A stretch of 64,000 nt of DNA from Sedimenticolaceae bacterium. GTDB taxonomy: Bacteria; Pseudomonadota; Gammaproteobacteria; Chromatiales; Chromatiaceae. The position numbers were made by a program, and so were the translations under genes. The stretch covers positions 7,894 to 71,893 of the forward strand of contig JBNKKH010000035.1 in assembly GCA_050291725.1 (NCBI GenBank), in the 5' to 3' direction. Of this stretch, positions 1,636 through 57,275 are shown piece after piece. Positions within the stretch are counted from its first letter, which is position 1. Each line of letters starts with the position of its first letter. The notes beneath the pieces are model-generated. The model did not search any database, was not told the origin of the DNA, and worked only from the letters and a program-made list of their open reading frames with translations.

Positions 1636-2358
1636 ATGTCTAAACAAGAGGCAGAACCAATGGCTATTAAAATCGACAAACAGATTGTTGACTATTCAGT
1701 GGCAAAAAACGAAGAAGAGGTAGAATCCCCTTCAGTTGCGACTATAGAGCAAGAAGAGAGCAACATAATTCAGATGCATGAAAAGGTCGAAAGACCTGAG
1801 ATGCTGTTTGGCTCAACTTACAAGATAAAAACTCCCTTATCGGAACATGCTCTCTACGTAACCATAAACGACATAATATTGAATCAGGGAACCGAGCATG
1901 AGGTCCGACGTCCATTTGAGATCTTCATCAACTCGAAGAATATGGACCACTTTCAATGGATTGTGGCTCTAACCAAAATTATATCTGCAGTATTCCGTAA
2001 AGGTGGTGACGTAACCTTCCTAGTGGAAGAGCTACGCTCAGTATTTAATCCTAGTGGAGGTTACTTCAAAAAAGGCGGTAAATATATGCCTTCACTGGTT
2101 GCAGAAATTGGTGATGTTATCCACTGTCACCTAGTGATGATCGGTCTGTTAAAAGAGGATGGACCAGATGAACACCAGCAGAAGTTGATCAATCAGAAAC
2201 GCGCTGAATATAATGAATCAATTAATATGAAGGATGCAGAACACTGCAATGAATTTCCAGAAGGAGCTCAACTCTGCATGAAATGTAACACTAAGGCAAT
2301 GATACAGATGGATGGTTGCCTTACCTGTCTTAACTGTGGCGAATCTAAGTGCGGTTAA
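1636..2358 (+). CDS. nrdJb: Class II ribonucleotide reductase C-terminal polypeptide (NrdJb-like) with a Cys-rich tail
   Basis: 240-aa ORF directly after nrdJa. The core RPFEIFINSKNMDHFQWIVALTKIISAVFRKGGD resembles the C-terminal part of full-length NrdJ. The tail is CMKCNTKAMIQMDGCLTCLNCGESKCG. The split arrangement is known from Pseudomonas aeruginosa nrdJab. The start could instead be the ATG at 1660. Confidence 0.8.
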   Translation: MSKQEAEPMAIKIDKQIVDYSVAKNEEEVESPSVATIEQEESNIIQMHEKVERPEMLFGSTYKIKTPLSEHALYVTINDIILNQGTEHEVRRPFEIFINSKNMDHFQWIVALTKIISAVFRKGGDVTFLVEELRSVFNPSGGYFKKGGKYMPSLVAEIGDVIHCHLVMIGLLKEDGPDEHQQKLINQKRAEYNESINMKDAEHCNEFPEGAQLCMKCNTKAMIQMDGCLTCLNCGESKCG

Positions 2359-2388
2359 AAGTTTACTAAAGACCTTAAGTTAACATTT

Positions 2389-2422
2389 AAAGGGTCGTCC
2401 TTGGGCGATCCTTTTCTGTTTT
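2389..2422 (+). terminator. Rho-independent terminator candidate after nrdJb
   Basis: AAAGGGTCG / CGATCCTTT stem (one G-T wobble) with an 8-nt loop, followed by TTTTCTGTTTT. Confidence 0.45.
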
Positions 2423-2543
2423 ATCCTAATGGCATCGGTTCAAATATAGATATATATTGAAATTGGAACCCTTTTGTCATCAACAGGACCAATGTACTAT
2501 CAGAAATATGAGTGTTTTCGCTTAATCGAAATGGGAATCCAAA

Positions 2544-3218
2544 ATGAATGTCATTCAGTTTATCAGGGAAAAAACCGAGAATATTCAACAAAATAACGCA
2601 GATTTTATCGCTAAACTTGAGCCTAAGTTCCGCAACCTGTCGCACCTGCTAAATGATAAAATAAGCAATACTCTCAACAATCCTTGGATATCAAGATTTA
2701 ATCCGTTTGAGGATGATACTGAGAATAACGAACAGGATTCAGTTGTTTCACTAGCCGCAGAAAACACCTATAGGGAGCTCCAGAATAAACTTGGACAGGA
2801 GATATTTCAGGGTGAATGGCTCACTGTAAACCAGGAGTGTATAAATAAATTTGCTGATATCACAGGTGATAATCAGTGGATTCATACCGACCCGGAACGC
2901 GCAGAAACGGAATCACCCTTTAAATCTACCATTGCTCACGGATTTCTAACTCTGGCGCTGATACCCTCACTTACAGAGACGGTTGATCCTGAAAACAACC
3001 CATATCCGGAAGCTAAAATGGTGGTAAATTATGGACTCAACCGGGTCCGCTTTCCCTTCCCAGTAAAAGCTGGATCCAGAGTACGCGCTAGAAAAAAACT
3101 TGTAAGCGTTACTCCTATGAAGCGCAGTATTGAGGTAGTAAATGAGGTTAGCATAGAGGTGGAGAACCGCGTCCGTCCTGCTTGTGTTGCCGAGACAGTG
3201 TTAAGGCTATATTTTTAG
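2544..3218 (+). CDS. MaoC-like (R)-specific enoyl-CoA hydratase/dehydratase, hotdog fold
   Basis: Motif FADITGDNQWIHTDPERA...STIAHGFLTLALIPSL is typical of MaoC/NodN dehydratases. About 70 aa of N-terminal extension are unassigned, so the start is uncertain. Confidence 0.72.
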   Translation: MNVIQFIREKTENIQQNNADFIAKLEPKFRNLSHLLNDKISNTLNNPWISRFNPFEDDTENNEQDSVVSLAAENTYRELQNKLGQEIFQGEWLTVNQECINKFADITGDNQWIHTDPERAETESPFKSTIAHGFLTLALIPSLTETVDPENNPYPEAKMVVNYGLNRVRFPFPVKAGSRVRARKKLVSVTPMKRSIEVVNEVSIEVENRVRPACVAETVLRLYF

Positions 3219-3234
3219 GACAAATTGAACTTAA

Positions 3235-3687
3235 TCACTCCTGTTTAATAAAAGCAGAGTAATTGCCGGTAAAGACCACTGCAACTCCATCCTCTGTATC
3301 TATCTCTGCTTTCAGTTCAATTCTGGCCTTTTCTCCATTGTTTAAACTATGAATTAATTTTGTGACTGAGCCATCCTTAGGTAACCTACAGCGCGCTTTT
3401 ATATCGCCTTTGACTGGCATTAAATATACAATATCTGCCTTCCCTAACACACAGTGTGCATCAATAGCCTCTTGTTCAAACCGAAGATGCAGCATCCCCC
3501 AGCAGGTAATAGCACAGATACTATAGAGGCTTCCACCAAATGCGGTTCCATGGATATTTATATTTGGTTCTAAATCGGCGTGTAGCAGAAGCTCATTCTC
3601 ATCATGCCCCTCTACCCGCAAACCCATCTGCTCGGTAAGTGGAACTTCGGTATGCAAAGTGCGTTCAAGCGTCTTTATTGTATTCAT
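3235..3687 (-). CDS. Hotdog-fold thioesterase, YiiD C-terminal-domain-like
   Basis: VPLTEQMGLRV...NIHGTAFGGSLYSICAITCWGMLHL matches my memory of the YiiD_Cterm/PaaI-like thioesterase family. The ORF extends to 3747, but the ATG at 3687 (MNTIKTLE...) gives the typical ~150-aa length. Confidence 0.62.
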   Translation of the reverse strand: MNTIKTLERTLHTEVPLTEQMGLRVEGHDENELLLHADLEPNINIHGTAFGGSLYSICAITCWGMLHLRFEQEAIDAHCVLGKADIVYLMPVKGDIKARCRLPKDGSVTKLIHSLNNGEKARIELKAEIDTEDGVAVVFTGNYSAFIKQE

Positions 3688-3821
3688 ATTATACTCATGT
3701 CGGCCATTTTTATGTGGTTTTACAGGGCAGTTTACAGTTAAAATCACACGCTTGTCATAATAACAATCTTACATTTTTCATAAATATATACGACTTATTA
3801 AGGAATTATTAGATATACCTC

Positions 3822-4529
3822 ATGCTGCTCAACAAATATTACTCTGAATCAGACACAGGCATCCAATTTACCCGAGAACAGGCAAGTAACTTTGCCAAAT
3901 TCGTAGCCGGTGACTTTAATCCACTGCATGATCCCGATAACAAGATGTTTTGTGTTCCGGGAGATTTGCTGTTTTCTGTAGCCCTTAGTAAATTGGGTCT
4001 AAGCAAACAGATGAAATTCACCTTTTCCGGCATGGTAAACGATGAGATTAGCATCGAATTTAATAATTCCAGTGGTGACTCTGTTGATGTAGTAGATAAA
4101 GAAGGAAAATCCTATCTATCTATCACCAGGTCTGGCGACAGTTCTCAAAATGAAACCGCTATAACCAGCCTGGCCAAAGGGTATGTTGAATTTTCTGGTA
4201 AAACATTTCCTCATATATTAGTACCACTTATGCAGGAAAAAGGCCTAATGATAAATCCAGCTCGTCCGCTAGTTATCTATGAAAGCATGGAAATTGACCT
4301 GGATAGTCTTGAAATAACCTGTCCTAAACTTGATATTACCGAGACCTCTTTTGAGGTTAATGGCAAAAAGGGACGCGTCAAACTCGGATTCAGTCTGACG
4401 CAAGAAGGAACTATTATAGGTAGTGGCATAAAATATATGTCCTTACGCGGCTTGAAACCATTTGTACAAGAACAGGTCGACACAATTGTAGATGATTATC
4501 TTTCACGTAAAGAATTACTTACATCTTAA
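3822..4529 (+). CDS. Hotdog-like protein with MaoC-type GDFNPLH motif (possibly DUF3581 family)
   Basis: 235-aa ORF with the N-terminal string FAKFVAGDFNPLHDPD. The DUF3581 assignment is from memory only. Confidence 0.5.
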   Translation: MLLNKYYSESDTGIQFTREQASNFAKFVAGDFNPLHDPDNKMFCVPGDLLFSVALSKLGLSKQMKFTFSGMVNDEISIEFNNSSGDSVDVVDKEGKSYLSITRSGDSSQNETAITSLAKGYVEFSGKTFPHILVPLMQEKGLMINPARPLVIYESMEIDLDSLEITCPKLDITETSFEVNGKKGRVKLGFSLTQEGTIIGSGIKYMSLRGLKPFVQEQVDTIVDDYLSRKELLTS

Positions 4530-4639
4530 GCGTTAGTTTCTGAAATTTGTGTATATTGATTAGCAACCTGTCTACTACTACAGTTAGGAAGCTATCTTGT
4601 TATTGATCCATTAGGTGAGGAGTAACCACCAAAACAACA

Positions 4640-5218
4640 ATGGAAAATCTGTTTGAAATTGGTTTGGAGAAACTCCTAGTTGCCCGCAAAAACGGGGATG
4701 AACTGGTACTTGGCTACCTTGATGCCAACGACAAAAATCTTGGATTCTGCCCCCAGTTTCAAAATGTACGTCTGGATGGACCTATATCACCTATAGGAGT
4801 GCTTTCAAGCCCACTACCCACCGACTGTTGGGATACTCTTACCTTCTATGGCGGGGCATATATACCCCAAACGATACCATCTAAAATTAGCGCACAGCTA
4901 AAAAACATAATAAATGATGACAATGTGTCTCTATGGAAAATGAAAAGCTCATACTATAGAGCATATGAATTCCTACTTAGTATAGGGATTACTCCAATTA
5001 TTATAGATAAATGGTCTGATATTCAGGTTCCTGAAAGAAATGGAAGCTTACACAACTTACGCGGCCCAATTGTTTCTAACTTACCGTTATTAAATAAAAA
5101 AAATGATGTCCATCTGTATCTGCAAAACAAGATCAGAGAGGAAATAGAGACAATTAGGGTAAAAGAGAAACAGTTTTCTGAGGAAGAGATCCTAGAACTA
5201 TTCAAAGATTATCTCTAA
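4640..5218 (+). CDS. Hypothetical protein (192 aa), no recognisable motif
   Basis: Clean ORF in an AT-rich stretch, preceded by GGTGAGGAG at a suitable distance. I could not assign any family. Confidence 0.5.
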   Translation: MENLFEIGLEKLLVARKNGDELVLGYLDANDKNLGFCPQFQNVRLDGPISPIGVLSSPLPTDCWDTLTFYGGAYIPQTIPSKISAQLKNIINDDNVSLWKMKSSYYRAYEFLLSIGITPIIIDKWSDIQVPERNGSLHNLRGPIVSNLPLLNKKNDVHLYLQNKIREEIETIRVKEKQFSEEEILELFKDYL

Positions 5219-5257
5219 GATAATACCTATACTTTGTGCTTAGTATGAGAGAGCAAT

Positions 5258-6295
5258 ATGGATCTTGATCTGAATAAATTCCGCACACTAATCCCCATTC
5301 ATGCGCTGTATGAGAATAATCTCATGCTTCTGGCCAAACAATCTGAGACAAGAAAACTTGAAAAAGGTGACATTGTTTTCAGACAAGGTGATGAAGACCA
5401 GGATTCTGTTTTCTTGTTAGCAGGAACGATCGAACTCATTTCTGCAGCAAATGAAGAGAAGAAAATCGTTGCTGGATCAAATGAGGCCAGTTACGCCTTA
5501 GCTGCAGACATACCCCGAAAATATGATGCTATCGTAACCTCTGATACTGCAAGTGTGGTCTGGGTAAATAGAGTGTTACTTGATCGCCTATTGGCATGGG
5601 GAGAGTCAACAATACAAGATGAGGAAGAGGCAGATAGCGACAGAGCTCATTCTGAGCTTGATAGCGAATGGATGATGGCTATGTTGCAAACGGATACTTT
5701 CCAAAAACTCCCATCGCAAAATATACAGAACCTTTTCTCTAGAATGGAGGAGATTAAAGTAAAAAAAGGCGATGTTATCGTAAGTTATGGAGAGGAAGGT
5801 GGTTATTATTACATGGTAAAGATGGGACGCTGTCAGGTAAGCCGTCCAACATCTGATGGTCGTGAAGATATCTTGGCCGAGATTGGACGAGGCAGCAGTT
5901 TTGGCGAAGAGTCTTTAATCTCGGATGCTCCGCGCAATGCAACTATTACCATGCTGTCTGATGGAATACTTATGCGTCTCGCCAAGCAGGACTTTATCGA
6001 ACTTTACAACCAACCAATTCAAAACTTGATAAGTTTTGATGAAGCCAACAATATGGTTTCTGCTGGTGCATGTATGCTAGATGTCCGCCTGGAGAGCGAG
6101 TACCAAAACTCATATATTGATGGTGCTATTAGCCTTCCTCTCAGTGACATTAGAGATCAAGGTCCTAAGCTTGACCGAGAAAGAAAATACATAGTTTATT
6201 GTGACACCGGACAACGTAGCTCAACTGCTGCATTTATTCTTAGTGAAATGGGTCTGGATGTATATGTGATAGAAGGTGGTGTTTCCAGCAACTAG
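5258..6295 (+). CDS. Protein with two cyclic-nucleotide-binding domains and a C-terminal rhodanese domain
   Basis: Two cNMP-binding-like segments (GDIVFRQGDEDQDSVFLLAG...; GDVIVSYGEEGGYYYMVKMG...FGEESLISDAPRNATITM). The C-terminal rhodanese has active-site loop YCDTGQRSS. Confidence 0.8.
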   Translation: MDLDLNKFRTLIPIHALYENNLMLLAKQSETRKLEKGDIVFRQGDEDQDSVFLLAGTIELISAANEEKKIVAGSNEASYALAADIPRKYDAIVTSDTASVVWVNRVLLDRLLAWGESTIQDEEEADSDRAHSELDSEWMMAMLQTDTFQKLPSQNIQNLFSRMEEIKVKKGDVIVSYGEEGGYYYMVKMGRCQVSRPTSDGREDILAEIGRGSSFGEESLISDAPRNATITMLSDGILMRLAKQDFIELYNQPIQNLISFDEANNMVSAGACMLDVRLESEYQNSYIDGAISLPLSDIRDQGPKLDRERKYIVYCDTGQRSSTAAFILSEMGLDVYVIEGGVSSN

Positions 6296-36991: not shown

Positions 36992-37106
36992 GGCGGCGGC
37001 CCGCACCAGCCACACCCCGGCACACGTATCCACTATTGCGGCTGCTCCCTTCCGGGCCTGACCGGGTTCACAGTTTCACGTTGCGAGGGGACCGACACAG
37101 GCCACC
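36992..37106 (-). ncRNA. ffs: Signal recognition particle RNA (4.5S RNA)
   Basis: The minus strand reads GGTGGCCTGTGTCGGTCCCCTCGCAACG...CCGGTCAGGCCCGGAAGGGAGCAGCCGC...GTGTGCCGGGGTGTGGCTGGTGCGGGCCGCCGCC. It is co-linear with E. coli 4.5S RNA, including the domain IV core GGUCAGG(U/C)CCGGAAGG(A/G)AGCAGCC. The 5' and 3' ends pair. It lies upstream of dnaX, a common synteny. Confidence 0.9.
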
Positions 37107-37155: not shown

Positions 37156-37447
37156 ACGTCAAGACGAGAGGATTACTCACGCTACGCGCTCGTTCTGCTG
37201 ACCTCCGGTCCTGGTCGAACCATCTTTTGAGTCGTAGGTTCGAATCAAATGTATTACATCTGATGTATAAAACTCTCCACTCCATGGAGAACTCTATTTA
37301 TTGGTCGGAGCGAGAGGATTACTCACGCTACGCGTTCGTTCTGCGGACCTCCGGTCCTGGTCGAACCATCTTTTGAGTCGTAGGTTCGAATCAAATATAT
37401 TACATCTGATGTATAAAACTCTCCACTCCATGGAGAACTCTATTTAA
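37156..37447 (-). repeat. Two tandem 146-bp units (about 97% identical) immediately 3' of tRNA-Pro, each ending in a copy of the tRNA 3' end
   Basis: Unit 2 (37302-37447) and unit 1 (37156-37301) differ at about 4 positions outside the first 9 nt of unit 1. TGGTCGGAGCGAGAGGATT (plus strand) recurs at 37302 and 37448, a period of 146. Confidence 0.88.
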
Positions 37448-37524
37448 TGGTCGGAGCGAGAGGATTCGAACCTCCGACCCCCACAACCCCATTGTGGTGC
37501 GCTACCAAGCTGCGCTACGCTCCG
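37448..37524 (-). tRNA. tRNA-Pro (anticodon GGG)
   Basis: The minus strand reads CGGAGCGTAGCGCAGCTTGGTAGCGCACCACAATGGGGTTGTGGGGGTCGGAGGTTCGAATCCTCTCGCTCCGACCA. It has a perfect 7-bp acceptor stem, anticodon loop AUGGGGU and an encoded CCA. It is near-identical in architecture to E. coli proL. Confidence 0.93.
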
Positions 37525-47259: not shown

Positions 47260-47287
47260 ACAATTGGATTATTTCCGATTGTGTAAC

Positions 47288-47674
47288 CTATTGACCTTCG
47301 TCCTTCAATAGATCCTTGAGCGCAGAAAACGGCCTGGAGGTTGCCGTATTCCCGCGACTGTCAACATTACTGCTACCTCCATACCTCTCCTCCTCCACAT
47401 ACCTTGAATGTTCGTTATCATGGCAATAGATACACAACAACTCCCAATTGGATCCATCCTCCGGGTTGTTATCATGATCGTGGTCACGGTGATGCACCGT
47501 TAGCTCATGCACATTTACCTGGGTGAATTCGCGACGACAACGCCCGCAAATCCATGGATACATCTTCAAAGCCCGCCCCCGGTAGCTACGCTCCCGTTCT
47601 TCCCGTTTGCTTCTGGCCGCTGCAACAACCTGATCTAACTTGGTATTGTTAATTAAACTCTTATCCTGTGACAT
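47288..47674 (-). CDS. yajD: HNH endonuclease-family protein, YajD-like
   Basis: CGRCRREF...LTVHHRDHDHDNNPEDGSNWELLCIYCHDNEH. The ATG at 47674 is preceded by GGAGG. The ORF-track extension to 47719 is unlikely. Confidence 0.8.
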   Translation of the reverse strand: MSQDKSLINNTKLDQVVAAARSKREERERSYRGRALKMYPWICGRCRREFTQVNVHELTVHHRDHDHDNNPEDGSNWELLCIYCHDNEHSRYVEEERYGGSSNVDSRGNTATSRPFSALKDLLKDEGQ

Positions 47675-47845
47675 AGGAAACAACCTCCATAACAAGATTA
47701 TAGAACCTCTAGACAACAATTAATGGTTGTAAGCCAGATACCGCACCACTGCTTAGCTAAGCCATATTTCTGGTAGCAAGCATTCGGAAATAGAATAGAC
47801 TAGAGGTTATACTCATTGAGTAACATCAGAATAGCGGAGGATTTG

Positions 47846-52098: not shown

Positions 52099-52105
52099 CT
52101 AGTAA

Positions 52106-53110
52106 TCACTTTTTAAACATATTCATATCTGGAACAGATAACCACCAGGTTGGCCCCATACCATAGGTATAGTCATTGCAATTATATTCTTCCGGCTGCG
52201 AATAGAGCAGCTCTACATCTGGATGTTTCTGGCAAAAGGTTACCGCGCCAACAACCTGCATCTTGGTACCATGTAACAGGGCAGTTAAATTATATTGATT
52301 TCTATATAAGGCATATATCCTAGTAAAAACATCATAGACTGCCTCCCAACCATGCGGCTTAACAGACAGTATGTTAGTTATTTTATCTGCATACCTCTCA
52401 AGGATCATTGCGTGGTTTTTAAGATACACCTCGCGCAGACCTTTTCGACACTTTAAAGTGCTCTGCATAATAACAACTATCTTATCTGGATCGACCTCTT
52501 CTATTGTTGAGATTTCACGTTCAGCATCACAACCAAGAAGCAGTATTAGTAGTGATGGTTTTTGTTCCTGTTTATCGCCCAAAAAACCTGGCACAGTTAA
52601 TACATTCTTAACCCCCTTTGTTAACCAGGTAGTACTTACTCCACATTTCTCAGTTGCATATTTTTCCGGGTCGGAATAAAACAGATATAGGGGCTTATCG
52701 CCTTTCTCTCTAAGAATAACATCAAGCAGATAGATCAGTACTCCTCTATTGAAAGTAGAAATATCAATTGCAATATAATCTGCATGATTTATGGCTTCTA
52801 ACATTGTGGGTTTGTAAGATTCAAGCAGTCCATTTTGTACACTTGATTCCACAGGTATTTGAATAGGATCATTACTAGATACAGAAGCAAAATATTGAAC
52901 TAATTTTTTATGGTTCTGCAGGTAAGCCTTAGAGCCTAAGAAGTCATGAAAATGAAAAATAAATACTGACTCAATACCATGACACCTCTCAGTAGTATTT
53001 ATAGATGCAAGAGACCTTGGTTCATAACTGGAGTGGCAAAAGAAAGCTATCTTCCCGCTTTTTCTAAACGGCGGAAAGCTATTTTGTATATTTAAAAAAT
53101 GGTGTGCCAT
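52106..53110 (-). CDS. Hypothetical 334-aa protein; possible tandem Rossmann-like (CARF/SAVED-like) sensor; family not identified
   Basis: Clean ATG-initiated ORF (AGGTGG 3 nt upstream). Two halves each carry a strand-(D/N)x(S/T)..G/F.(K/R)-helix-strand pattern: IAIDISTFNRGVLIYLL...LYLFYSDPE and YNLTALLHGTKMQVVGAV...ELLYSQPE. The region is AT-rich. Confidence 0.6.
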   Translation of the reverse strand: MAHHFLNIQNSFPPFRKSGKIAFFCHSSYEPRSLASINTTERCHGIESVFIFHFHDFLGSKAYLQNHKKLVQYFASVSSNDPIQIPVESSVQNGLLESYKPTMLEAINHADYIAIDISTFNRGVLIYLLDVILREKGDKPLYLFYSDPEKYATEKCGVSTTWLTKGVKNVLTVPGFLGDKQEQKPSLLILLLGCDAEREISTIEEVDPDKIVVIMQSTLKCRKGLREVYLKNHAMILERYADKITNILSVKPHGWEAVYDVFTRIYALYRNQYNLTALLHGTKMQVVGAVTFCQKHPDVELLYSQPEEYNCNDYTYGMGPTWWLSVPDMNMFKK

Positions 53111-53388
53111 ATTCCACCTATACGATAGGTGGGCAACGCGTAAGGCATTCCTACTATATGCTATAACTATTTATCTAATGTTTATTTTTCCACTCATGGA
53201 AACAAACTGCGTTTTCCATGTTGCCCCTAGTGTTCACCCGATCAGAATTATCGTTATAATATTGTATTGTTGTGTTATCTGGCCGGATTATACATTAAAA
53301 CCACTACGTTTTCTGTAGTTATTTTATCGTTGTACTATCTTGAGTGGAAAATATTTGCCAACTATAACTTAATAATAAGTTGTTTTTT

Positions 53389-55158
53389 CTACGAGAAAAG
53401 ATTCCTTAACCAACCCTTCTTCTGATGTTCAACTGACCCTTTCTCATTATGACTATGGCGGACTGGTCGCACTAGAAAATTCTTCATACACTGGTTACAA
53501 ATCTGTCTATACAGATCATTCGATTCTTTGAGTAAGGCTTCCTTATCGTGAATAAAATAGTCTGTCGCGCTATCGGTAAAGGCATCAGCAATCTTCTGAA
53601 ACCCTTCAAATGTTTCTGCAATTACAAACTGGAGAGATTGGTTACCCAGAAACCCCAGATCGTCAATCATCTCTCTGAGACTCTTCTCCTCTTCACTCTT
53701 AACCATAAGATTTTGCAGACGCAACTTTAGAGCCTCATTAAACATAGTAAATTGGGTGACTTTTTCATCATCTGAACTGGTTAAACTTTGATCTATCACC
53801 TCTTTCAGTTGGGCTATATTCAGAATCAGATGGTAAGTACTTAGATCAGATATATACTTACGCATAGTAGTAAAATCTACCTTCTGCTCAGTATATTCAA
53901 GGAATTCGCTATTTGAATAGAGGATAGAGTAAATCCTTATCCAATCAGTTAGGCGCTCTACCCCAACCGATGTAGACAAACCTAGAGAGGTGCGCTCCAG
54001 TTCAAGAAACTGTTTCCCCGCTGCAGCCTTCTGCAATGCTGGGGATATTTCGAACACTCCATCCAAACCGATAATCTTCTCTTGGGCAATCCTGATATTC
54101 TCTTTATCCTCACTATTAATCATGCTGGTATCTTCTGCCAGTTGGCTAAGATACTCTTTAGTTATAGCGAGTTCAGATTGAATTCCATTGTGGTATAGCT
54201 TCATGCGATCTTCAGCATGGCGATACTCGTCAATGAAGGTTAGTGCAAGCTTCTTCAATATCGCCTGTTGATCATGGTTCACTAACAGCATCAGATCTTC
54301 CAATATATCTCGAGCATTCTGCGTTAGTTTTGATGGACACCTATAGCCCCAAATTCTACTAATGATCTTCACATATGCTCGAAAGTTATCATCTAGCAGA
54401 ACATCATGCTCCTTTATATGACGAAACAGACTATTAACCGCCAACCTAAATTTAAGTTGCTGCAGTATAGTGGGCTCAATTCCAGTATTCAGATAGTGTT
54501 TAAACAGGACCTGCTCATCATCCTCACTATCTTTCATTCTGATAGTACTGTCCTGTTCCTCTGGCTCACCACAGGCAAACACTGCCATTAAATATGGCTT
54601 GATGGTTAAATATTTATAGTTTGATTTTATCTCGCGCGTCAGTCGCTCAATCAATCTTGAACAGGTCGTAGCATGTTTCAGAGGAAAATTACTATATTTT
54701 TGGAGTACGGCTGATACGACTTGGCGCCCTTTTTCAATCCTAATCAGATCATCTCGGTATTGCTTTACCAGATCGTCAGACAGTTTTTCCACATCTCTTT
54801 GCTTATATCCAGCACGCACCTTAAGCAAGAACTCTGAAGGCATTTTGGTACTGATGTATATATTTGAGAGTTCTGCGCCAAATTGTTTTTCTAGCTCCGC
54901 AGATATATCCAAATAGGTAACATTAGCAAATTTATCACTGTTATCTTTTAGACTGTTTTCCACATCATCTATTAGAACAGTTGCTATCTCCTCTAGCTTT
55001 GCACTTGCAGAGGCAATTTTGTGTTCATTACACAACTGATTGAAGAAGGCTGAAAACTCTGGAGCATGCATATAATCCTTAATAGTGCGAATTACGGCAT
55101 CTACATCTCTGTTGATATAGAGCTTACGTAACTCCTCTTTGAATTGACTTATCTCCAT
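53389..55158 (-). CDS. Hypothetical 589-aa protein, apparently all-helical and soluble; no family recognised
   Basis: Long uninterrupted ORF in an AT-rich region. It has no Walker A, no TM segment, no signal peptide and no catalytic motif I can defend. It is co-oriented with and upstream of the 334-aa ORF. Confidence 0.6.
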   Translation of the reverse strand: MEISQFKEELRKLYINRDVDAVIRTIKDYMHAPEFSAFFNQLCNEHKIASASAKLEEIATVLIDDVENSLKDNSDKFANVTYLDISAELEKQFGAELSNIYISTKMPSEFLLKVRAGYKQRDVEKLSDDLVKQYRDDLIRIEKGRQVVSAVLQKYSNFPLKHATTCSRLIERLTREIKSNYKYLTIKPYLMAVFACGEPEEQDSTIRMKDSEDDEQVLFKHYLNTGIEPTILQQLKFRLAVNSLFRHIKEHDVLLDDNFRAYVKIISRIWGYRCPSKLTQNARDILEDLMLLVNHDQQAILKKLALTFIDEYRHAEDRMKLYHNGIQSELAITKEYLSQLAEDTSMINSEDKENIRIAQEKIIGLDGVFEISPALQKAAAGKQFLELERTSLGLSTSVGVERLTDWIRIYSILYSNSEFLEYTEQKVDFTTMRKYISDLSTYHLILNIAQLKEVIDQSLTSSDDEKVTQFTMFNEALKLRLQNLMVKSEEEKSLREMIDDLGFLGNQSLQFVIAETFEGFQKIADAFTDSATDYFIHDKEALLKESNDLYRQICNQCMKNFLVRPVRHSHNEKGSVEHQKKGWLRNLFS

Positions 55159-55268
55159 TTATATTTCCATTAATATCCACAAAGTCTATGTCATAAACTA
55201 TTGTCGGCTATTTAGTGGCTAACTTGAGATCAAAACCATATCACCCTATCCAGTTAATCAGATGGTGA

Positions 55269-57275
55269 TTAAACCAATATCCCCTTAGATTGCAACACTC
55301 TAATCTGATCTCGCACTGCTGCTGCCTCTTCAAACTCAAGATCTCTGGCATGCTGGTACATTTTCTGTTCTAACTGCTTGATCTTTCGGCTCATTTCAGT
55401 TGCGGACAGAGACGCATATTCCAGCTGTTCCTCAGCGACCATGGCATACTCTTTGGCGGGTACCGGCGCTCCAGGCCTTGCTCCCTCCATCACATCTTTT
55501 ATTGCCTTCTGTACACTCTGAGGTGTGATGTCATGCTCCAGATTAAAGGCGATCTGTTTATTTCTGCGGCGTTCAGTTTCATCCATTGCCCTCTGCATGG
55601 AGCCAGTTATCCTATCAGCATATAGTATAGCCTTGCCGTTGATGTTTCTGGCAGCACGGCCAATTGTTTGAATCAGAGAGCCTTCTGAACGTAGAAACCC
55701 CTCCTTATCTGCATCCAGTATAGCCACCAGGGAGACCTCAGGCATATCCAGGCCTTCCCGCAGAAGATTGATCCCCACCAGAACATCAAACTCGCCCAGA
55801 CGTAGATCACGGATAATCTCTACCCGTTCTACAGTATCAATATCTGAGTGCAGATAACGCACCCGCACCCCATGTTCATTCAGATAATCTGTTAGGTCTT
55901 CAGCCATGCGTTTGGTCAGAGTGGTAACCAGTACACGCTCTTGCACCGCTACTCGTTTATGTATCTCCGAGAGCAGATCATCCACTTGGGTAGTAACCGG
56001 GCGAATCTCCAGATCAGGATCTACCAGTCCGGTGGGGCGAACCACCTGCTCTACCACCTTACCAGAGCGGTTTAGTTCATACTCCCTGGGTGTGGCGGAG
56101 ACGTAAATGGTCTGGGGGGCGCGCGCCTCAAACTCCTCGAACATTAGGGGGCGATTGTCTAAAGCCGATGGCAGCCTGAAGCCATATCCCACCAGATTCT
56201 CCTTGCGGGAACGATCACCCTTGTACATGCCCCCTACCTGTGGAATAGATACATGGCTCTCATCTACAACTAGAAGAGCATCATCCGGCAGATAGTCCAA
56301 AAGAGTTGGAGGTGCCTCACCAGGACCACGACCAGACAGATAGCGCGAGTAGTTCTCGATTCCAGAGCAGTAGCCCAACTCCAGAATCATCTCCATATCG
56401 TACATAGTGCGCTGTTCCAGGCGCTGCGCCTCCACCAGTTTGTCATTTTCCCTAAAGTGCTTCAGCCGCTCTTTTAGCTCCTCTTTGATCTTATCCACAG
56501 CTCCCAGCAGAGTCTCCCTGGGAGTTACATAGTGGGATTTGGGATAGATGGTGTAACGCGGCATTTTACGCAGCACCTCTCCTGTGAGGGGATCGAACAG
56601 CGAAATAGACTCCACCTCATCATCGAATAGCTCTATGCGTACAGCCTCTCCACTAGACTCCGCCGGATAGACATCTATAACCTCACCTCGTACGCGGTAG
56701 GTTGCGCGGTGCAACTCTACATCATTGCGACTATATTGCAGCTCCGCCAGACGCCGCAGAATAGTTCTCTGGTCTATGCTCTCCCCTCGCACCAGATGCA
56801 GCACCATGCTCAGGTAAGCTCGCGGATCGCCCAAACCATAGATGCAGGATACGGTAGCCACAATAATTGTATCTGGGCGTTCCAATAGGGCCTTAGTGGC
56901 TGAGAGACGCATCTGCTCAATATGCTCATTGATAGAGGCGTCTTTTTCAATAAAGGTGTCTGAAGAGGGTACATAGGCCTCTGGCTGGTAGTAGTCGTAG
57001 TATGATACGAAGTACTCCACTGCATTTTCCGGAAAGAACTCCTTCATCTCTCCGTATAGCTGGGCTGCCAAGGTCTTATTGTGGGCTAGAATAATGGTTG
57101 GGCGCTTGAGCTCCTGAATAACATTAGCAATGGTAAAGGTCTTGCCAGAACCGGTAACCCCCAGTAAAGTTATCCCCGCCTCTCCATCTGTCAGGCCATC
57201 TATCAGCTCCAGGATAGCCTGAGGCTGATCTCCTGCTGGTGCAAAATCGGCAACTAATTCAAAATCTTTTGGCAT
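55269..57275 (-). CDS. uvrB: Excinuclease ABC subunit B
   Basis: 668 aa; [10 protein letters not shown] Walker A, DESH box (VVDESHV) and a C-terminal UVR domain ([13 protein letters not shown]). Confidence 0.97.

Follow-up and report, generated by a model that had tools for sequence, protein, structure and literature searches.

The window analysed here is a 64,000-nucleotide (nt) stretch of contig JBNKKH010000035.1 from a Sedimenticolaceae bacterium. Between its uvrB gene and an ATP-binding cassette (ABC) efflux operon lie two genes of the same orientation, here called A and B, which a first-pass annotation had put forward as an undescribed two-gene defence or signalling module. The explanation that best accounts for the data – we give it a probability of roughly 60% – is that this is a composite, vertically inherited locus in which a domesticated orphan sensor, B, stands beside a lineage-specific helical protein, A. 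A would be an old member of the Sedimenticola-type gammaproteobacterial lineage that works independently of B. B would be a domesticated orphan of the CARF6-like family, whose genes are canonically the last, translationally coupled ones in a methyltransferase-linked conflict operon. The ancestor of the clade formed by B and its close relatives would have kept B alone, downstream of A, with loss of the ATPase, effector and methyltransferase genes, and B would have acquired a separate promoter together with a structured leader in which the ribosome-binding site and the start codon are base-paired.

The family membership of B rests on profile matches and a structural model. Nine 'CARF6--CARF_CARF_CARF' models of PADLOC-DB match the protein over its full length, the best with E=9.8e-29 and the next two with 3.8e-22 and 1e-20, while B alone has no significant match in NCBIfam, PHROGs or the PDB sequences and none above threshold in Pfam. 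CARF domains are defined by a Rossmann-like core of six strands, the last two of which form a beta-hairpin (Makarova 2014, PMC4012209), and their hallmarks are a polar serine or threonine ending strand 1 and a lysine or arginine after strand 4, often in the form [DN]X[ST]XXX[RK] (PMC4012209). The AlphaFold2 model of B (pLDDT 78, pTM 0.82) has two consecutive β-α-β-α-β-α-β-α-β-β domains, at residues ~21–172 and 186–326, and judged on this model B has the CARF topology. In the N-terminal domain strand 1 is closed by S27-S28 (CHS27-S28) and the exact signature D116-I-S-T-F-N-R122 follows strand 4. In the C-terminal domain H-G-T-K283 follows strand 4, and the position after strand 1 reads G193-x-D195-x-E-R198 instead of serine or threonine. 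The first reading had found no Walker A and no defensible nuclease or NTase motif in either protein; A has no recognisable domain, but B is not without motifs, given the D116–R122 signature and G-T-K283.

The family to which B belongs is large. Used in an exhaustive HMMER search, the clade profile brought up 1109 cluster representatives at E<=0.001, and nearly all of the best 150 matches listed are stand-alone proteins of 310–340 amino acids (aa); the homologues in the database include a few shorter ones (221–313 aa). Word-indexed searches with B returned 24–26 sequences, all from its own clade and with at least 54% identity, and the nearest relative outside the clade, P0119, is 35% identical. 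Among 105 diverse family members, 59 matched the CARF-type Pfam domain HFX_2341_N (best 1.7e-12), three Csa3_N and one CARF_Card1. The family profile also found the CARF domain of Card1 in the PDB (E=5.8e-4), in an alignment that spans the GTK motif. Two residues that never vary in the family, R32 and R198, are kept in B, as are E30, D116, F120, Y145, Y151, G166, G178, G193, P208, N274, K283 and Y309, each present in at least 90% of members; B departs from near-invariant positions at two only, in both cases conservatively (E195D and S315T). Within the clade, 74 columns are invariant over 20 sequences, including the pocket residues. The N-terminal peptide MAHHFxNIQNSxPPF is specific to the clade, conserved and disordered (pLDDT 35 for residues 1–10), and it has the appearance of a motif by which a new partner could be docked. 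On this combination of sequence and model evidence B was filed as a divergent tandem-CARF-like ('CARF6') protein and a member of the CARF superfamily. The suggestion that the small protein is a sensor type has thus fared well: the PADLOC CARF6, HFX_2341_N and Card1 profile matches place it in a CARF-like, defence-associated superfamily.

Outside the clade, B-like genes have a highly regular setting. The set comprised 19 loci with 20 B-like genes: three in reference genomes (Undibacterium, a Marinomonas metagenome-assembled genome (MAG) and an Ignavibacteriota MAG), one on the contig of P0119, 11 in metagenomes and four on plasmids (of Yoonia, Rhizobium, Spirosoma and Agrobacterium). The reference-genome and metagenome loci were recovered with an alignment of a six-sequence subset of the B family. 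Eighteen of the loci, with 19 genes, include upstream sequence, and in every one of them (18/18 loci, 19/19 genes) an ORC/Cdc6-like AAA+ ATPase gene (PF24389) lies directly upstream of the B-like gene, whose start the ATPase stop usually overlaps. The 97-residue fragment of the gene upstream of P0119 is an ATPase C-terminus. In 12 of the loci the first gene of the operon encodes a C5 cytosine DNA methyltransferase, and the effectors are of several types – a calcineurin-like metallophosphoesterase fused to the ATPase (6), a separate HD-CE (5) or a PRTase-CE (1). 'CE' stands for 'conflict effector' and denotes predicted nucleotide-degrading immune effectors named by Nicastro, Burroughs, Iyer and Aravind (NAR 2023), according to a preprint that cites them (PMC12871103). 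The operon recurs in Proteobacteria, Bacteroidota and Ignavibacteriota and also on plasmids, and several of the non-clade operons adjoin AbiEii, SIR2, Vsr/Dcm and transposases on plasmids. No A-like open reading frame (ORF) was found in any of the 19 loci, no cas family is listed among the neighbours of any clade or non-clade locus, and no CD-NTase was found at any locus.

By these gene orders, the canonical system has a constant core of two proteins, the ORC/Cdc6-like ATPase and the B-like protein, to which one or another effector is added, in a classic conflict-system layout. The two core proteins are probably synthesised in a coupled manner, because their genes overlap or abut. As far as could be traced, the literature holds no experimental study of the ATPase-CARF6 operon, which is a computational prediction only. 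With its Dcm-type methyltransferase, its sensor with a nucleotide pocket and its nucleotide-degrading effector, the canonical operon parallels the recently reported PUA-Cal-HAD system, which senses methylome-derived m6-dAMP (PMC12871103). By this analogy, modified deoxycytidine monophosphate (dCMP) would be a candidate ligand of the canonical system, though a speculative one. One of the loci, L017:4975-14979, has two versions of the operon tail to tail, one with a metallophosphoesterase-fused ATPase and the other with HD-CE, ATPase and methyltransferase, and their B-like genes converge 190 nt apart.

The clade has a different and equally regular gene order. Nine distinct loci were compared: the window, L003/L004, L005, L009/L010, L011/L012, L028, L029, L030 and the contig of P0021. 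All nine have the order uvrB, A, B, with an aminotransferase gene before uvrB and a convergent ABC permease gene past B. In L009 (9328-11418) and L010, a histidine kinase and a response regulator (DUF3369), neither with matches to defence models, follow B in place of the ABC permease, so the junction between B and the ABC operon has undergone one rearrangement or more. The clade flanks examined, which extended up to 6–8 kb per side, contain no gene for an ATPase, effector or methyltransferase, and the canonical partners of B have been lost at this locus. Neither A nor the B clade was found on viral contigs; plasmids yielded no A, and the only plasmid matches of B were distant family members from outside its own clade. 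The window genes scanned around the locus are housekeeping genes and not a defence island, and there is no cyclase or cas gene among them.

Sequence divergence of A and B in the clade follows that of uvrB. Identity in this set ranges from 85% down to 63% for A and from 69% down to 56% for B, and pairwise protein divergence correlates with that of uvrB (Spearman 0.75 for A, 0.70 for B). The ratio of non-synonymous to synonymous substitution rates (dN/dS) is 0.05–0.16 for A and B where synonymous sites are unsaturated, and both genes are under purifying selection. Mean dN is 0.21 for A, 0.27 for B and 0.07 for uvrB, meaning that A and B evolve 3–4 times faster.

The expectation that the pair would prove a horizontally acquired, small variable islet was not borne out. 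All nine clade loci carry both genes, with no presence/absence polymorphism; their divergence keeps pace with that of uvrB, and dN/dS is low. These data fit a locus that has been inherited vertically for a long time, neither a strain-variable islet nor a mobile two-gene defence cassette. The idea of a typical two-gene layout of sensor plus partner fails as well: sister lineages have A but not B, and the relatives of B always follow an ORC/Cdc6-like ATPase gene and never lie beside an A-like gene. Co-occurrence gave a divided answer, in that the two genes are together in the nine clade loci but are not paired in non-clade relatives of B or in lineages with A only. Nor did the neighbourhood, made up of housekeeping genes, show the defence-island enrichment that had been suggested as a check, and the proposal that the pair might be an already named system found no system match in PADLOC-DB v2.0.0 (no families for A, and only CARF accessory-type models for B).

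Protein A remains without relatives of known type. It has 92 homologues with identities down to 33%, in Sedimenticola spp., Candidatus Polarisedimenticolaceae, a lucinid-type symbiont and Gammaproteobacteria MAGs. The AlphaFold2 model from a 47-sequence alignment (pLDDT 83.6, pTM 0.74) has ~25 helices and no sheet. Neither the single sequence nor the 47-sequence family profile matched anything above noise in Pfam, PADLOC, NCBIfam, PHROGs or the PDB sequences, and fold searches ended at E 0.5 in the PDB and E 0.2 among the predicted viral structures of BFVD. The first-pass annotation had foreseen a large helical partner and could name neither protein on sight; A is indeed helical with no recognisable domain, and neither protein is of a housekeeping family, with no family for A and a CARF-like one for B. 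By sequence and model, A is best regarded as a genuine orphan family of no known family or fold. Two candidate identities were rejected. As a degenerate helical region of ORC/Cdc6, A gives an hhalign probability of 0.1%, and as a HEPN RNase it has four Rx4-6H strings, none of them at invariant or near-invariant columns of the 47 sequences, and no HEPN profile match.

A occurs without B in three lineages (L001, L007 and L008), and no B-like neighbour of A was found in any of them. In Sedimenticola thiotaurini (L001:8001-10787 and L002:3706-6492), A lies between a divergent gene for a CheW-receiver protein and, 58 nt on, a gene of the histone deacetylase family, neighbours that might hint at its native functional context. 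In the two further lineages it is found among chaperone, RNase and sucrose-synthesis genes or among AMMECR1, APH and dsr genes. Because A stands alone in sister lineages such as Sedimenticola, it would predate B at the locus, and the most economical history is that A was resident first and that B arrived once, in the ancestor of the clade, presumably within or cut from a canonical operon.

The layout of the interval was recovered exactly as first annotated, with two minus-strand ORFs filling positions 52099–55268. In the ORF list, the uvrB stop codon ends at 55269, and the stop of B is 7 nt away from that of the convergent ABC permease (52098). The spacer between uvrB and A is 110 nt and that between A and B 278 nt. 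No terminator-like hairpin was found between the stops of B and the permease (52099–52105), and because of this and the 7-nt distance the two convergent transcripts probably overlap. Several absences noted at first reading were upheld on computation. Neither protein has a Walker A motif; nor does either have a transmembrane segment, as judged from maximum 19-residue Kyte-Doolittle hydropathies of only 0.93 (A) and 1.38 (B). The interval contains no integrase ORF and adjoins no tRNA gene (the nearest are at 45.3 and 59.3 kb), direct repeats in its flanks are limited to chance-level matches of 14–31 nt, and no tandem or CRISPR arrays were detected.

Hand counts had suggested an AT-rich segment, and this was confirmed: guanine-plus-cytosine content (GC) is 0.386, 0.377 and 0.398 in the 1-kb windows from 52 to 55 kb, compared to 0.495–0.507 at 49–52 kb and 0.526 at 56–57 kb, in uvrB. 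By gene, uvrB has a GC of 0.505 and the ABC genes 0.49–0.51. B, with a GC of 0.376 and a third-position value (GC3) of 0.322, is the lowest of the 47 window genes, and A has a GC of 0.396 and a second-position value (GC2) of 0.293. AT-richness as a sign of recent transfer did not hold up for A, which is 4–9 GC points under its flanks in every lineage, including genomes of ~0.59 GC, and which across lineages is rich in the amino acids FYMINK (0.27–0.34 versus ~0.22) and poor in GARP. Its low GC is a weak sign of recent transfer, since it recurs in all lineages and follows amino acid composition. Canonical B-like operons are likewise AT-rich relative to their hosts, and the very low GC3 of B fits a foreign origin better than the composition of A does.

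The putative regulatory sequences are separate for the two genes (Table 1). In alignments of five and eight loci, the first half of the A–B spacer is unconserved and is followed by the -10-like element and then by the leader. With eight loci, RNAalifold predicts 29 pairs in the leader, seven of them with compensatory changes. The upstream conserved part comprises AUCGGGYGA...GGGCAAC and a covarying hairpin, and a GGGCA/UGCC helix closes the leader. In the internal hairpin (53220–53195) four pairs are changed on both sides; it reads CAUGGAAA/UUUCCAUG in the window versus CAUCGGGG/CCCCGUG in L003. The extended stem at the 3' end (53139–53104) reaches 6 nt into the coding sequence. In it CCACCU pairs with the Shine-Dalgarno (SD) sequence AGGUGG (53132–53114), and GCGUUG pairs with UGGCAC (53139–53134 with 53109–53104), covering the UG of the AUG codon and the next four bases. 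In a control, 92% of cells were paired, against 32–43% with slid partners, and the covariation score was 0.255 versus 0.167 for shuffled alignments (0/500). A covariance model of the leader matched only upstream of B in clade loci in ~400 kb of sequence searched, and Rfam had nothing at the gathering threshold or at E<=10. A leader peptide was also considered and rejected – the 14-codon ORF loses its ATG in L003 and L028, while the hairpin persists by compensatory changes.

Table 1. Features of the A–B locus in the window, and loci with the canonical operon outside the clade
Feature	Position	Strand	Description
Gene A	53389..55158	(-)	589-aa ORF; all-alpha orphan; found in Sedimenticola-type gammaproteobacteria only
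Gene B	52106..53110	(-)	334-aa ORF; two tandem CARF-like Rossmann domains ('CARF6' family)
Promoter-like block for A	55200..55227	(-)	TCAAGT-16 nt-GACAAT; sole conserved block in the uvrB–A spacer (8 loci)
Extended -10-like element for B, TGTATAAT	53287..53294	(-)	TGnTAnnAT-like; conserved in the clade (alignment)
Structured 5' leader of B	53111..53244 (conserved element 53244-53099)	(-)	~135 nt; extends into the first codons of B
Operon loci	L013:6043-10951, L015:6023-10927, L014:6036-10912, L018, L019, L026, L027, L032:3040-7963, L035:2603-7552, L033:3781-7675

The shared transcription that the two-gene layout had seemed to imply is contradicted by the long spacer and by a promoter-like block for each gene, and we infer from these sequence features that A and B are separate transcription units. 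The leader suggests that translation of B would be off by default and released by a signal, which could be a ligand, a protein, a small RNA or temperature.

In the preferred reading, B would still bind a ligand of nucleotide type, in pockets that each of its two CARF-like domains forms behind strands 1 and 4, as suggested by the intact conserved pocket residues. Because it has no effector domain, B would act as a stand-alone, tightly translation-gated ligand binder that either sequesters or turns over its ligand or serves as a ligand-gated adaptor. It may reach a new partner through the N-terminal peptide, and A is the obvious candidate, though a functional coupling of A and B is put forward only tentatively, as a possibility on the doubtful side.

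Several observations weigh against this account. The match of B to Pfam HFX_2341_N, in the C-terminal domain (residues 189–309), scores 17.1 bits and is below the 30-bit gathering cut-off. The top 50 PDB hits of a whole-chain Foldseek search with B are generic tandem alpha/beta proteins (KaiC, the KCC C-terminal domain, USP) with a TM-score of ~0.25, and none is a CARF or SAVED protein. The term 'ligand-binding sensor' rests on the fold and the conserved motifs, and no ligand, partner or phenotype is known for the CARF6 family. The leader was derived from eight related sequences in which one helix clearly covaries and the two 3' helices are near invariant, and its single-sequence folding z-score is weak (-1.0). 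The lasting adjacency of A and B would also be expected of a functional pair. Finally, with only the 64-kb window in view, the rest of the genome may encode a signal-generating enzyme or an ORC/Cdc6-like ATPase.

The adjacency leads directly to the explanation closest to the first proposal, a self-contained two-gene defence or abortive-infection system in which B is a nucleotide or infection sensor and A a novel helical effector. Such a system would account for the kept adjacency and co-orientation in the nine loci, the origin of B from a defence-type family and the faster evolution of both proteins relative to uvrB; A has no housekeeping annotation to speak against it, and the invariant disordered peptide unique to the B clade could dock a partner. 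It is nevertheless judged unlikely, for A is found alone among housekeeping genes in its sister lineages and no relative of B outside the clade has an A-like neighbour. The locus is fixed rather than patchy, its surroundings are housekeeping genes, and it is absent from viral contigs, with no plasmid match for A and only distant ones for B. A 278-nt spacer and separate promoter-like blocks divide the genes, no signal-generating enzyme accompanies them, and A has no recognisable effector chemistry and no conserved Rx4-6H. A variant in which the pair is newly evolved – a CARF6 sensor freed from its ATPase system and rewired to a pre-existing helical A through the N-terminal peptide, with the leader as a riboswitch-like or protein-titrated gate on the same nucleotide signal – must be called quite unlikely at present.

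The position of B beside A would be incidental if B worked in trans with an ORC/Cdc6-like ATPase and a nucleotide-targeting effector (and a methyltransferase) encoded elsewhere. Throughout the rest of the family, as far as examined, the ATPase and the B-like protein form a universal core, B retains the residues conserved in the family, and inspection of the source genome covered 64 kb. The difficulty is that canonical genes overlap or abut, which implies coupled synthesis, whereas B has its own promoter-like element and a leader that would occlude translation. None of the three partner genes lies within the clade flanks, and the B clade is a long isolated branch with its next relative at 35% identity, which fits a changed function; working in trans is an improbable arrangement on this evidence. 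Decay has still less in its favour. Loss of its partners, the lowest GC and GC3 in the window and the few shorter homologues of 221–313 aa could mark B as a remnant of a lost defence operon heading for pseudogenisation, with A an unrelated neighbour and the islet devoid of current function as a unit. However, the ORFs are intact and full-length in nine of nine loci, dN/dS is ~0.07–0.16 with synonymous sites saturated, the clade keeps its 74 invariant columns and its pocket, and the promoter and leader are conserved, the latter with compensatory changes. The selection data largely refute decay, and it retains hardly any probability.

The locus raises several points. The tandem-CARF proteins of this kind stand alone and form a large family, with ~1100 clusters at 50% identity, whose constant partner is an ORC/Cdc6-like ATPase; the nucleotide-targeting effectors that go with it are swappable, and a C5 methyltransferase completes the set. 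The clade would show that the sensor subunit of such a system can persist alone over long evolutionary spans while purifying selection maintains it, and that it can acquire a promoter of its own and a structured leader that occludes the ribosome-binding site – a concrete case of defence-gene domestication. Orphan B would in turn offer a tractable way to learn which ligand CARF6 domains bind. A combines a confident all-helical model with the lack of a fold match, and it is conserved across chemosynthetic and symbiont bacteria. The locus also corrects the reading that an AT-rich pair of genes of no assigned function must be a mobile defence cassette, and on present evidence it is no new kind of system. 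A rewired A–B pair, if true, would amount to domestication of a defence module into the host physiology of sulfur-oxidising or symbiont-type gammaproteobacteria.

Some further features were seen in the window and in related loci. A 146-nt unit is repeated at 37165–37466 (2.1 copies, 97% identity), overlapping a tRNA gene (37451–37524) and adjoining the signal recognition particle (SRP) RNA gene (37001–37097). It looks like a partial duplication of the tRNA region and is possibly an old integration scar. A second low-GC block, at 1636–6295 (gene GC 0.38–0.42), encodes a TSCPD-domain protein, a MaoC dehydratase, a YiiD_C thioesterase, a DUF3581 protein, an unannotated 192-aa ORF and a protein with cyclic nucleotide monophosphate (cNMP)-binding and rhodanese domains. 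Beyond the ABC operon, three relatives have a small HNH-domain gene of 128–130 aa (L003:15479-15865, L028:11472-11858 and L030:11653-12045); its site corresponds in the window to a gap of ~550 nt (47260–47815) between PHO4 and the ABC adaptor gene. On the contig of P0021, a gene of 4693 aa (InPase, Eco57I, helicase, ART-PolyVal) lies upstream of the GspH, aminotransferase and uvrB genes, ~4.8 kb from A and ~2.6 kb from uvrB. Its product is a polyvalent protein of conflict type, and the window has no such gene.

CARF and SAVED sensors have mostly been discussed within CRISPR type III or CBASS signalling. B resembles the CARF sensors and ring nucleases of type III CRISPR-Cas (Csm6/Csx1, Card1/Can1, Csa3, Crn1) by its profile relations to Card1, Csa3_N and HFX_2341_N. 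It differs from them in having no fused effector (HEPN, PD-DExK or HTH) and in carrying two CARF-like domains in one chain instead of forming a homodimer, and its ligand need not be cyclic oligoadenylate. No cas10, other cas gene or CRISPR array was found in the window or the related loci examined. With the SAVED proteins of CBASS, B shares a tandem CARF-like pseudo-dimer in a single polypeptide, but it has no CD-NTase neighbour and no fused effector, and neither B nor any of the 105 family members matches Pfam SAVED. The C-terminal domain of B aligns, below threshold, to HFX_2341_N of the HFX_2341/Csa3-type regulators, which combine CARF with a winged helix-turn-helix (HTH) domain; HFX_2341 is a global repressor in Haloferax (PMC11434293), while B has no HTH or other DNA-binding domain. 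B belongs neither to the type III CRISPR accessories nor to the SAVED/CBASS components, and it is not part of a PADLOC-named system.

The leader of B has its own parallels, in SD-sequestering operators, RNA thermometers and riboswitch platforms, with which it shares an anti-SD hairpin (CCACCU with AGGUGG) and an outer helix over the AUG; it differs in belonging to no Rfam family and in being seen only upstream of B in the clade. The nearest known relatives of B itself are the CARF6 operon proteins (PADLOC 'CARF6--CARF_CARF_CARF', encoded with PF24389, HD-CE PF24391 and PRTase-CE PF24390), operons in which the calcineurin-like fusion corresponds to PADLOC PDC-S60. In the window and the clade the gene upstream of B is A, and there is no effector or methyltransferase between uvrB and the ABC operon. 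The test for these defining neighbours found none of them, which places B outside the canonical ORC-ATPase operon. It differs from the proteins of that operon in lacking an adjacent ATPase, effector and methyltransferase, in its identity of at most 35% to the nearest member, and in its own N-terminal peptide, putative promoter and leader, but it is like them in size (~320–340 aa), in its two domains and in aligning with them over its full length.

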